From: a virus
Reading direction: 5' to 3' (one strand)
Virus genome (UHGV): UHGV-0188446
DNA: 10,714 nt
The position numbers were made by a program, and so were the translations under genes. Of this stretch, positions 967 through 5,107 are shown piece after piece (positions within the stretch are counted from its first letter, which is position 1; each line of letters begins with the position of its first letter). The notes below the pieces were generated by a model. That model saw only the letters and a list, made by a program, of their open reading frames with translations, was not told the origin of the DNA and made no database searches.

Positions 967-1167
967 TTATGCAGTTGTTTTTTTGTTACTTGGGAAGGGC
1001 TTTATTTCTTCCGCATAAACGCTTCCATCAGCGTTTATAGTTAAAAAAATCTTTCGGCCTGCATGAATGGCCTTGTTAATCGCGCTTTGATATACGCCGA
1101 GATCTTTAGCCGTCTTGGTTTGCCCAAAGCGTATTGCATAATCTTTCAGGGTTATGCGTTGTTCCAT
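967..1167 (-). CDS. cro: Cro repressor
   Basis: 66-aa [69 protein letters not shown], essentially the lambda Cro sequence as recalled. AGGAGG Shine-Dalgarno (complement of 1171-1176). Divergent from cI across the OR operators. Confidence 0.95.
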
Positions 1168-2130: not shown

Positions 2131-2610
2131 ATGGATAAAATTAATTACCCACCCCTGTTTGAGCCAGGGTTCCATGACATGGATGAAGCTGGATTAAAAT
2201 CGTATTGTGTCGATTGCTTTCCTTCATCATCCAGGCGAGGCATGCTATACTGTAATTTTATACAGCTACTCGAATCTATTCGAGAATTATCTGCTCAATA
2301 TGGCTGTTTTACAGAAATATGGGTTGATGGTTCATACACCACGTCTAAACCAGAGCCTGATGATATTGATATTTTGTTGGTATGTGACTATAGCAATATA
2401 AACTCAATACCTGTCATGCTTCGGGGCCGCGTCGATAATTTGCTTGACCGAAACTACATCAAACAAAACTACAAAATTGATGTCCTACTACTCATGAAGA
2501 ATTTAGATGACCCTAACTATGATTATGAGTACTGGCGTAGCTACTGGCGCGGTTGGTTTGGTTTTGATCGCAGTGAAAACCCGAAAGGGTTAGTGAGGAT
2601 TTTTTTATGA
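2131..2610 (+). CDS. Hypothetical protein with minimal nucleotidyltransferase (pol-beta superfamily) signature; first gene of a two-gene cassette in the rexA/rexB position
   Basis: ORF track 2131..2610, 159 aa. Motif IWVDGSYTTSKPEPDDIDILLVCD fits the hG[GS]-x(9-13)-DhD pattern of minimal nucleotidyltransferases. AAGG about 9 nt upstream of the ATG. Stop overlaps the next gene's start (ATGA at 2607-2610). No resemblance to lambda RexA. Confidence 0.7.
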   Translation: MDKINYPPLFEPGFHDMDEAGLKSYCVDCFPSSSRRGMLYCNFIQLLESIRELSAQYGCFTEIWVDGSYTTSKPEPDDIDILLVCDYSNINSIPVMLRGRVDNLLDRNYIKQNYKIDVLLLMKNLDDPNYDYEYWRSYWRGWFGFDRSENPKGLVRIFL

Positions 2611-3539
2611 ATGATAAATCAATGTTTAAAAATTGCGATAAACGCATTGATTTCATTCAAAAAGAAGTCGATGCAATGAAGCAAAACAAAACCAGGTCCT
2701 TTGCTGACATGCTTCTTTATCGCTCCATGGATTCTCATCTGAGCGATTTGAAGGCCGAAAAATTAAAGCAAGATAGTCGGCACCCACTTATCGATTTTTT
2801 TGAGCTGCGGCTGAAAGGCTCTGAGGTTGACTTTGGCTCTATTCCTTTAGAGCTGCTTGGGGCTATTTCAACAAATCTTGCAGCGCTAATACAAAGAGCA
2901 ACACACAAAATTGCCTCAGGCAAGGACTCAAAAAAAGTTCCCTACGACGTGAAAAGCTCCTTAAACCTCAGGCTGGCTGATTTATCCCCTGGGTCTACAA
3001 AATTGGGCGTCACCTTCTCTACAGGAATAGCAGAATTAGTAGAAACAGTACCCAGCAAGGCTGTAAAAGGCATATTCGATTTGTTGTTAAGCGATGACGA
3101 CAACAACTTCATGAATCACGTCGCTGAAATTGGATACAATTCCACTGTAAGCCTTAAGAGAATCGTAGAGGAATGCGATAAACACAACTTAACATTTGAT
3201 GCAAGTTGGACCGGTCCATTTAGTAATGGCACCAAGGTGGCAACTATTGACTCCAATAAAATTAAGTACTTGGTGAGTAGACTTACATCAACCATTTCAT
3301 CCCCTCCCATTACTGAAACGGTTACAGGCGAACTGGTCGTTCTATCCAAATATGGGAAGCTGGAGCTTGATGTTGGTGGTGAACATTTAAAGGCTTCCTA
3401 TCCGATTGAAATGCTAGATTTAATACAAAAAAAACACAAGGTCGGACAGATTGTTTCTCTTTTAGTGGAGACTACTGAGATTCACAATGATCGCATAGGT
3501 CTGTACCGTAAAAACCATCTTGTTAAATCGGTTCTTTAA
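2607..3539 (+). CDS. Hypothetical 310-aa soluble protein of unknown function; second gene of the cassette, translationally coupled to the nucleotidyltransferase gene
   Basis: ORF track 2607..3539. ATG overlaps the upstream stop. No long hydrophobic segments, no Walker motifs, no resemblance to RexB seen by eye. An Rx4H string (RSMDSH, aa 39-44) is noted but is weak evidence. Followed by an intrinsic terminator. Confidence 0.7.
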   Translation: MNDKSMFKNCDKRIDFIQKEVDAMKQNKTRSFADMLLYRSMDSHLSDLKAEKLKQDSRHPLIDFFELRLKGSEVDFGSIPLELLGAISTNLAALIQRATHKIASGKDSKKVPYDVKSSLNLRLADLSPGSTKLGVTFSTGIAELVETVPSKAVKGIFDLLLSDDDNNFMNHVAEIGYNSTVSLKRIVEECDKHNLTFDASWTGPFSNGTKVATIDSNKIKYLVSRLTSTISSPPITETVTGELVVLSKYGKLELDVGGEHLKASYPIEMLDLIQKKHKVGQIVSLLVETTEIHNDRIGLYRKNHLVKSVL

Positions 3540-3546
3540 TATCTCA

Positions 3547-3572
3547 CCCGGCCACCGAGCCGGGTTTTCTTT
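3547..3572 (+). terminator. Rho-independent terminator closing the cI/cassette transcription unit
   Basis: GC-rich hairpin cccggc-caccga-gccggg (3547-3564) followed by ttttcttt (3565-3572), 8 nt after the stop of the 310-aa gene. Confidence 0.7.
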
Positions 3573-3719
3573 GCCTACCCCCCCCCAAAAAAAACACATA
3601 ACCAATTGTATTTATTTGAAAATTAATAGATACAACTCACTAAACATAGCAATTCAGATCTCTCACCTACCAAACAATGCCCCCTGCAAAAAATAAATTC
3701 ATATAAAAAACATACAGAT

Positions 3720-3782: not shown

Positions 3783-3850
3783 AAACACATCAGCAGGACG
3801 CACTACTCACCAGGGCGGTGAATATACAACGATTCGAATATGAATCTACG

Positions 3851-3865
3851 GCGCTGACAAAGCGC
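3851..3865 (+). promoter_or_regulatory. nutL boxB hairpin of P22 type (GCGCUGACAAAGCGC)
   Basis: Perfect 5-bp stem gcgct/agcgc with pentaloop gacaa about 60 nt downstream of the PL start. This matches the P22 boxB as I recall it rather than lambda boxB (GCCCUGAAGAAGGGC). No clear boxA was recognised upstream. Confidence 0.6.
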
Positions 3866-3870
3866 AATAA

Positions 3871-4013
3871 CCAAAGTGAACTTTGGGGTGTGGTGAAGGG
3901 TTCATGGACGGGAATATGTCGCACGTAAAGCGGCGAGGCCTGCGGGACTATTGCCGAATTGAAGTAGGCCGAAACAGGTCGAAATGGGTCTCCCACCTAC
4001 CACACCACCAAAG
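3871..4013 (+). promoter_or_regulatory. N-leader RNA structure: long-range stem (3881-3895 with 4000-4013) plus competing local hairpin (3871-3886)
   Basis: ctttggggtgtggtg (3881-3895) is complementary to ccacaccaccaaag (4000-4013) with one bulge. ccaaag-tgaa-ctttgg (3871-3886) can form an alternative local hairpin. Lambda has an equivalent long-range leader duplex upstream of N that is processed by RNase III (recalled). The stem ends 8 nt before the N Shine-Dalgarno. Confidence 0.5.
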
Positions 4014-4030
4014 TTCATCAGGAGGTCTAT

Positions 4031-4414
4031 ATGACACGCAGAACTCAGTTCAAAGGCAATTCACGTTCTCGTCGTCGTGAGCGTTTAAAGGCAAAGGCAT
4101 TAGCTAACGGCGTGCTGGCCCGCGAAGAAGCAATAAGTTCAGAAGTATTACACCGCCCTACTCTAAGCAGAGCGCAGATTCAGGCTAAAGGTACTCACGA
4201 AACGCCTGAGCGCATAGAAGACGCTAAGCCAATTAAGTTCATGGCACAGGACGTGATCTGGCAACAGAAAGAATACAGACGCAATCTGGAGAGAGCGGCC
4301 ATTGTGTACGCGAATGAGTTTGGGCATAGGCAACCAGAAACTGGTGTATGTCTTCCAAATGTAGCTCTTTACGCGGCAGGCTACAGGAAATCAAAACAAC
4401 TGACAGCAAGGTGA
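4031..4414 (+). CDS. N: N-like transcription antitermination protein, P22 gene 24-like family, with arginine-rich N-terminal motif
   Basis: First gene downstream of PL/nutL. GGAGG Shine-Dalgarno at 4021-4025. N-terminal arginine-rich motif (NSRSRRRERLKAKALA). C-terminus ..CLPNVALYAAGYRKSKQLTAR resembles the P22 N C-terminus (..LLPGVALYAAGHRKSKQITAR) as recalled. Confidence 0.8.
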   Translation: MTRRTQFKGNSRSRRRERLKAKALANGVLAREEAISSEVLHRPTLSRAQIQAKGTHETPERIEDAKPIKFMAQDVIWQQKEYRRNLERAAIVYANEFGHRQPETGVCLPNVALYAAGYRKSKQLTAR

Positions 4415-4941: not shown

Positions 4942-4966
4942 GTTATGTATAAATAAGGAGCACACC

Positions 4967-5107
4967 ATGCAATATGCCATTGCAGGGTGGCCTGTTGCTG
5001 GCTGCCCTTCCGAATCTTTACTTGAACGAATCACACGTAAATTACGTGATGGATGGAAACGCCTTATCGACATACTTAATCAGCCAGGAGTTCCCAAAAA
5101 TGGATAA
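4967..5107 (+). CDS. cIII: CIII, protector of CII (FtsH/HflB inhibitor)
   Basis: ATG at 4967 with AAGGAG 6 nt upstream. 46-aa product MQYAIAGWPVAGCPSESLLERITRKLRDGWKRLIDILNQPGVPKNG matches lambda CIII over its length except for a shorter C-terminus, as recalled. The ORF track shows a longer in-frame form from 4865, which I reject. Confidence 0.8.
   Translation: MQYAIAGWPVAGCPSESLLERITRKLRDGWKRLIDILNQPGVPKNG

Follow-up and report, generated by a model that had tools for sequence, protein, structure and literature searches.

What an RNA duplex of lambda type is doing in front of an N gene of another type is the question raised by the DNA analyzed here, a 10,714-nt stretch of the virus genome UHGV-0188446 (hereafter the window). 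The window is a mosaic lambda-like (pro)phage and its sequence corresponds to lambda's leftward strand. A second question is what part is played by a short hairpin that competes for the 5′ strand of the duplex. The first regulator to appear after infection or induction is N, which gates the expression of everything downstream in Shiga-toxin phages with the same leader.

RNase III processes the N leader of lambda and modulates N autorepression, and the enzyme cuts with a 2-nt stagger. The RNase III processing stem of the lambda pL/N leader was reportedly described by Steege et al. 1987, Kameyama et al. 1991 and Wilson et al. 1997, 2002, and Franklin (1985) is said to have already noted a conserved leader form in lambda, 21 and P22. 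The duplex in the window is the expected homologue of this known stem and not a surprise; its conserved upstream hairpin and the slot for a cassette between its arms might be new parts. With a lambda-type stem in an HK97/H-19B-type leader, control of N by RNase III becomes a concrete and testable expectation for the phages that have it, and the comparison across phages yields exact module boundaries for a well-studied mosaic region. The conserved second pairing, the local hairpin, is apparently unexplained in the lambda work, as far as we could check.

Features of the pL/N region

The features of the window on which the analysis draws are the following, with RNA letters for transcribed elements.

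967-1167 (minus strand): cro
1268-1981: cI, 237 aa
3754-3782 (plus strand): pL promoter, TTGACA-17-GATACT, inside lambda-type oL operators (promoter scan, mEp234 annotation and near-identity to lambda)
3789-3805 (plus strand): transcript start, with +1 at A3789 (from the mEp234 annotation), and the conserved first ~17 nt, AUCAGCAGGACGCACUA
3851-3865 (plus strand): nutL boxB hairpin GCGCUGACAAAGCGC with a P22-type loop (putative annotation in mEp234; predicted hairpin)
3871-3876 (plus strand): upstream copy CCAAAG, the 5′ strand of the local hairpin
3876-3894 (plus strand): 5′ arm of the long-range helix, with outer GUGAA 3876-3880, core CUUUGG 3881-3886 and inner GGUGUGGU 3887-3894
3895-3998 (plus strand): interior of 104 nt, cassette A, with three helices predicted from the folds
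3999-4018 (plus strand): 3′ arm, with inner ACCACACC 3999-4006, bulged A4007, core CCAAAG 4008-4013 and outer UUCAU 4014-4018
4021-4026 (plus strand): Shine-Dalgarno sequence of N, AGGAGG (from the sequence)
4031-4414 (plus strand): gene of the N antitermination protein, HK97/H-19B type, 127 aa (open reading frame list; AUG at 4031)

Between positions 3700 and 4420, the DNA is 99.2-99.3% identical to HK97, mEp234 and HK106. The mEp234 record (EF120460) annotates pL, oL1-3, the transcript start, a putative boxA and a putative nutL boxB at homologous positions. Sequence comparison showed that the boxB of the window, GCGCUGACAAAGCGC, is identical to that of the P22 leader, and the N protein matches the Pfam family N_peptide (PF25694, E = 1.7e-15). 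The stem is absent from the annotation of the GenBank records of lambda, HK97 and mEp234, the last of which is blank between boxB and N.

The spacer between the putative boxA and boxB is unusually long, and two hairpins are predicted in it on the plus strand, at 3807-3821 (UCACC-AGGGC-GGUGA) and at 3831-3846 (GAUUC-GAAUAU-GAAUC). Alternative NUT structures are reportedly known from phage H-19B, which has the type of N found in the window.

A long-range helix closes the leader ahead of N

A scan for inverted repeats identified TTTGGGGTGTGGT (3882-3894) opposite ACCACACCACCAA (3999-4011) and TGAACTTTGG (3877-3886) opposite CCAAAGTTCA (4008-4017). On folding the pL transcript, G3876-U3894 pairs with A3999-U4018 to give 19 bp interrupted by the single bulged A4007, a helix that lies downstream of nutL boxB and upstream of the N ribosome-binding site. 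The same single helix was obtained from the leader between +1 (3789) and 4045 and from 3866-4020 alone. After an interruption of 2 nt, a 3-bp extension (AGG/CCU) prolongs the helix into the junction with the three predicted helices of the interior, giving double-stranded RNA of about two turns with little interruption. In the full leader, the core pairs with a probability of at least 0.998. For the sub-region 3866-4020, the minimum free energy (MFE) is -60.4 kcal/mol, compared to -44.3 ± 3.9 kcal/mol for shuffled sequences (z = -4.08), and 0 of 200 shuffles folded as well.

A sequence-only reading of this locus had paired 3881-3895 with 4000-4013 and had the helix end 8 nt before the N Shine-Dalgarno sequence. 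The central 14-15 nt of that pairing agree with our folds, as does the expectation that the duplex is thermodynamically favored (P ~ 1). The helix is longer than was thought by five outer pairs (3876-3880 with 4014-4018), and the gap between its end at 4018 and the Shine-Dalgarno sequence is 2 nt.

The boxC motif has a G/U-rich consensus resembling GGUGUGUG. We found a G/U-rich, boxC-like stretch of this kind, GGTGTGGTG, at 3887-3895, 22 nt 3′ of boxB; several other cassette types retain the helix without such a motif. BoxC is regarded as part of nut (PMC2724277). In the MFE fold of the window, the 5′ end of the pL transcript also pairs weakly with the AUG region of N.

The stem resembles that of lambda within an otherwise unrelated leader

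Near-identity between the window and lambda extends across the operators and ends ~17 nt into the transcript. Beyond that point, the two cannot be aligned except for three islands, (T/C)CAAAG, CTTTGGGGTGTG and CACACCACCAAAG, which are the upstream copy and both stem arms. In the arms, CTTTGGGGTGTG and CACACCACCAAAG, stretches of 12 and 13 nt do not differ from lambda at any position. In lambda, the stem reads GCUUUGGGGUGUGUG / CACACACC-A-CCAAAGC, with the bulged A at the same place as in the window. Judged by position and sequence, the stem in the window is the HK97/H-19B-type counterpart of the lambda N-leader stem.

The two stems share their location between nutL boxB and the N Shine-Dalgarno sequence, a core of CUUUGG, bulged A and CCAAAG, and a G/U-rich inner 5′ strand. 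In both, the helix has 16-19 bp plus extensions and encloses ~90-104 nt, and an upstream CAAAG copy is able to form a hairpin with the 5′ core. Unlike in lambda, the outer stem of the window is 5 bp longer and ends 2 nt, rather than 7 nt, before the Shine-Dalgarno sequence, and the inner stem is GGUGUGGU where lambda has GGUGUGUG. The interior is unrelated to that of lambda, and boxB and N on either side are of other specificity classes. For the HK97-type stem, cleavage by RNase III is putative and is proposed by homology.

The whole HK97-type leader from CATCAGCAGG onward is common to phages with at least five unrelated promoter/operator regions, and the similarity to Stx phages begins at query positions 89-91, corresponding to 3788-3790 of the window. 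On the basis of this shared leader and this starting point, the immunity region meets the N module at the transcript start. Behind at least five unrelated promoter/operator types and ahead of many nutL/N types (L003-L283), pL transcripts begin with the same 13-17 nt (AUCAGCAGGACGC...), which mark a sharp mosaic joint.

These joints revise the recombination history that had been read from the sequence, in which the duplex was retained from lambda and a breakpoint lay between it and boxB. The likeness to lambda stops ~17 nt past the pL start except for the arm islands, and it is HK97-type, not lambda-type, sequence that makes up the outer stem, the ribosome site and the upstream CCAAAG copy. The observation that the duplex is flanked by a foreign boxB and N was correct, with a P22-type boxB on one side and an HK97-type N on the other.

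The helix is conserved across diverse N leaders

We assembled 160 loci with an HK97-type or lambda-type N from two protein-guided scans. In these loci, the space between the same cores is filled by six types of interior (A, B, C, lambda, D and E), and cassettes A and C were each found with both N types. Type D (GAGUAGCGCG / CGCGUUACUC) has no GGUGUG motif yet forms a perfect helix, and in one lambda variant a G-C pair is cleanly replaced by U-A.

To obtain a less biased sample, we scanned IMG/VR with only the 14 nt that open the pL transcript and filtered for a boxA-like sequence and an open reading frame. Removal of chance matches left 62 loci with 60 distinct leaders, and six leaders from the protein-guided scans brought the set to 66. 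By hand count, the IMG/VR leaders include at least eight kinds of N arginine-rich motif and at least ten boxB types, among them P22- and 21-like ones.

In 65 of the 66 distinct leaders, the MFE structure contains a helix of 13-27 bp whose start lies between about +80 and +100 and whose interior measures 4-198 nt; most of the sampled leaders have ~16-22 bp. The 3′ end of the helix lies 0-10 nt before a Shine-Dalgarno sequence in all but three leaders, in which the nearest match to a Shine-Dalgarno sequence plus AUG is 41-52 nt downstream of the helix. The outer stem covaries with the N module (GUGAA/UUCAU, GUUGG/CCAAU, GAGAUGG/CCAUUUC, GCGUGAG/UUCACUC and UGAGUGG/CCACUUA), and the inner stem covaries with the cassette. 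A bulged purine is found at the same position in 58 of the 65 leaders with the helix (A in 42 and G in 16).

We quantified pairing in an ungapped alignment of 51 rows (A2). As this alignment was anchored on predicted pairs, its pair counts are biased towards structure; 87.8% of its cells form standard pairs, compared to 34-42% when the partners are slid against each other, and double changes occur in 16 of the 22 pairs (219 cells). The covariation score was reached by 0 of 500 shuffles, a control that does not amount to a probability because the sequences are related. RNAalifold returned the same register including the bulge, with compensation in 13 of its 17 pairs. We take these results as strong indications, and not as probabilities, that the helix is kept by many compensatory changes, in line with the conservation of the duplex that had been supposed from the window.

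The interior is an exchangeable cassette

From CUUUGG to CCAAAG, cassette A of the window is ~96-97% identical to its copies in two other leaders, L194 and L244 (hand count on the alignment). L194 has a nutL and N of lambda type and L244 an N of a third family, and the flanks are unrelated on both sides. Because the cassette is nearly identical while both flanks are unrelated, the inner stem and the 104-nt interior constitute an exchangeable module of their own, with joints inside the two conserved 6-nt cores.

Searches of the leader region and seven sources against Rfam gave no family for the leader or the cassettes. ARAGORN detected no tRNA in the window or among the cassette A leaders, nor did the Rfam tRNA model match, and the window cassette was rejected as a tRNA-like element on these grounds. 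Its sole likeness to a tRNA is an acceptor-like stem followed by A and CCA, resembling the cassette of leader L251. A coding role for the interior (open reading frame 3883-4080) is unlikely by inspection; this frame overlaps N out of frame, and the replacement cassettes in other phages differ in sequence and length.

Some cassettes in other leaders are tRNA-like. In L251, ARAGORN called a 70-nt cloverleaf at 691-760, 'tRNA-Leu(tag)', which has a perfect T arm and whose acceptor stem, GGUGUGG/CCACACC followed by A and CC, has the same sequence as the inner stem of the window. ARAGORN called L196 and L215 weakly, and in L202 a canonical T arm adjoins the 3′ arm. The tRNA-like N-leader cassettes gave no match to the Rfam tRNA model at E ≤ 1.

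A family of short cassettes (L183, L187, L193, L201, L231, L241, L242, L266 and L267) consists of a hairpin under a conserved apical loop, AGAUAAGCA. The stem below the loop covaries (CCAGA/UCUGG, CCGUG/CACGG, UCGAG/CUCGA and CCGG/CCGG), and the conservation of the loop suggests that it may be a specific recognition loop. In L235, L244 and L266, a small gene between the leader stem and N takes over the ribosome site adjacent to the stem. In L235 it encodes a hydrophobic peptide of ~39 aa, MLEIITNPILGG...WMWERKNK, of which L244 and L266 have close variants; the insert in L250 is unrelated.

The 5′ core has a second, local partner

The 5′ core can also pair with the CCAAAG immediately upstream. 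Folding gave the hairpin CCAAAG (3871-3876)-UGAA-CUUUGG (3881-3886), with a free energy of -6.4 kcal/mol, exactly as the sequence-only reading had drawn it. Taken alone, this hairpin is within chance: when the 26 nt upstream are shuffled, a match of equal length with G-U pairs tolerated arises in 11% of cases. Because the window alone gives only P ~ 0.11, the support for the hairpin comes from the comparison of phages.

When shortened transcripts were folded, the 5′ core folded onto the upstream copy in nearly every leader type. The two partners change together: CCAAAG/CUUUGG in the window corresponds to CAAAGC/GCUUUG in lambda, CCAAAC/GUUUGG in P22 and CCAGAAC/GUUUUGG in 21, and further covarying pairs are CCGAAAC/GUUUUGG, CCGAAG/CUUCGG and CCACA/UGUGG. 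In the structure-anchored alignment A2, 98% of the hairpin cells are paired and 4 of 6 pairs show double changes, and the observed pairing, double-change and covariation values were matched by 0 of 500 shuffles. The hairpin is better conserved than the long-range core and persists even where the core is mismatched; at each of two positions, about ten rows show a mismatch in the core, U·U or another.

In the complete leader at equilibrium, the local pair has a probability below 0.001 and the long-range pairing one of at least 0.998. In simulated nascent chains, the hairpin prevails (P > 0.95) until the 3′ end reaches ~4012, after which the long helix takes over (P > 0.99); the hairpin coexists with the inner stem once 3999-4006 has been made. 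As an equilibrium device, the conserved translational switch that had been suggested for this leader does not survive this comparison, since the two pairings are not comparable at equilibrium, and we rejected a two-state equilibrium riboswitch or attenuator, having found no two folds of comparable stability. Because the local pair falls below 0.001 in the complete leader, the folding model makes the hairpin a co-transcriptional or post-cleavage state and not an equilibrium switch.

The arrangement resembles attenuator-type X/X′/X hairpins, in that CUUUGG has two exclusive partners, an early local one and a late long-range one, and all three elements covary. It differs from them in the unequal stability of the two states at equilibrium, in having no terminator and in showing no sign of a deciding ligand or ribosome; switching here is set by the progress of transcription and possibly by cleavage. 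A weak terminator, 'tL0', accompanies the nutL region of lambda (PMC7315355), and the conserved hairpin just after boxB would be a possible equivalent. In the window, the scan showed no terminator-like site at 3866-3900, and the local hairpin is not supported as an intrinsic terminator.

A proposed model of RNase III processing

We consider it probable that 3876-3894 / 3999-4018 is the processing stem of the pL/N leader RNA and closes an exchangeable 104-nt cassette. By homology with lambda, the stem would most likely be a substrate of the host RNase III, and its length of ~20 bp fits a two-turn double-stranded RNA substrate. While intact, the helix would abut the ribosome-docking region of N and would keep the N-bound NUTL RNA linked to the N start, which is the state of lambda N autorepression. 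Lambda N translationally represses itself through NUTL (PMC5725501), and a link between RNase III and the lambda N leader is given in cited titles (Wilson 2002, Steege 1987).

We infer that RNase III would cut near the bulged purine, at the junction of the core and the inner stem, excising the cassette, splitting NUTL from the N message and freeing the docking region, with an effect on N translation. The upstream CCAAAG would provide the 5′ core strand with a second partner; the hairpin would form first during transcription and would be displaced as soon as 4008-4013 has been transcribed. Once the RNA is cut, the NUTL fragment could regain the hairpin at its 3′ end, where it would weaken the leftover 11-bp intermolecular duplex and cap the fragment. 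That the hairpin holds, releases or caps anything is offered as a hypothesis only.

We simulated a cut after the core, beside the bulge, following the RNase III stagger and the cleavage sites of lambda, which we take to be at ~+88 and +197. The resulting NUTL fragment ends exactly in the local hairpin. As a computed proxy for ribosome access, the 30S footprint (-20 to +15) takes 17.6 kcal/mol to open in the full, intact leader and 7.2 kcal/mol once the cut is simulated. Sequestration of the Shine-Dalgarno sequence by the helix was rejected, as opening the hexamer costs ~2 kcal/mol in the intact and processed states alike. Since the hexamer is open in both states, any translational effect would have to act through the docking region or the NUTL tether. 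The 6.4 kcal/mol of the hairpin offsets part of the leftover 11-bp duplex, and the two halves are still held at a net ~-12 kcal/mol; they are thus predicted to stay together after the cut, and release is not guaranteed.

A bolder reading, which we regard as possible and rather doubtful, is that the stem is a universal docking frame with three co-evolving 6-nt cores (CCAAAG, CUUUGG and CCAAAG), in which the upstream copy acts as a strand-displacement latch and the interior is a slot for free-moving cassettes. If this were true, the upstream copy would hold the 5′ strand during transcription of the cassette and, after cleavage, would eject the N message from the NUTL-bound fragment and cap the 3′ end of that fragment. 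Phages would fill the slot with different processing modules, and for the tRNA-like ones RNase P could make the cut at that same junction.

The RNase III processing stem has a counterpart in the leader-trailer helix of E. coli rRNA, where a G/U-rich boxC strand likewise comes after the nut-like boxB/boxA antitermination signals and, by pairing with a strand far downstream, makes an RNase III site. The antitermination complex has been proposed to 'deliver' the 5′ strand of the rRNA helix to its partner (PMC8632103; PMC10250234). The strands are ~100 nt apart in the phage leader, in contrast to ~1.6 kb in rRNA, and the excised part is a non-coding cassette instead of 16S rRNA. A further difference is the local holding hairpin for the 5′ strand, which is conserved in the phage leaders.

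Alternative explanations

The helix could instead act purely as a structure beside the ribosome site, hindering the 30S subunit or serving as a thermometer, and thereby affect N translation or mRNA stability without a nuclease. Its end 2 nt before the Shine-Dalgarno sequence of the window, the distance of 0-10 nt seen in most leaders and the additional ~10 kcal/mol needed to open the 30S footprint in its presence are what this explanation expects. The Shine-Dalgarno sequence itself stays open, however. A length conserved at ~20 bp and a bulged purine kept at a single position in 58 of 65 leaders point to a nuclease substrate more than to simple occlusion, and cited titles call the lambda homologue of the stem an RNase III site. 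We consider a structure-only role unlikely. We give somewhat less credence to the idea that the stem mainly serves to excise the cassette as a functional small RNA, with the regulation of N secondary. Cassettes do move as separate modules between N families, with joints at the cores, some are tRNA-like, and one widespread family has a covarying stem under the conserved loop AGAUAAGCA. Against this, their sizes run from 4 to 198 nt and nearly empty stems are still kept (L222, L184 and L214), the window cassette has no Rfam or tRNA-model match, and we found no independent evidence that any cassette has a function.

That the arms are conserved as DNA, either as patches of homology for recombination or as the boxC of nut, with their complementarity incidental, strikes us as very improbable. 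It would account for mosaic joints that fall exactly in CUUUGG and CCAAAG and for a 5′ arm with a G/U-rich motif like boxC, which is part of nut (PMC2724277). DNA homology does not predict the many double substitutions that maintain pairing in both the inner and the outer stem, however, and cassettes without GGUGUG (GAGUAGCGCG/CGCGUUACUC) still form a perfect helix. A chance inverted repeat has nothing in its favor beyond the small size of the local hairpin; for the long helix it is refuted by z = -4.1 with 0 of 200 shuffles and by the presence of the helix in 65 of 66 leaders, and overall we give it next to no weight.

Other features of the window

Where lambda has rexA/rexB, between cI and the Timm terminator (3546-3565), the window carries two other genes on the plus strand, at 2131-2610 and 2607-3539. 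One encodes a DUF6932 protein and the other a protein of 310 aa without a Pfam match. The pair matches both components of the PADLOC candidate defence system PDC-M63 (component A, E = 1.8e-41; component B, E = 7.5e-45).

Between the Timm terminator and oL3, at 3578-3595 on the plus strand, a run of about nine C is followed by eight A and is possibly a slippage-prone tract. Downstream of N, positions 4954-5012 (plus strand) gave a full-length match to the Rfam family Lambda_thermo (88.5 bits, E = 2.7e-20), which represents the translational thermoregulator of cIII and here marks the cIII start region.
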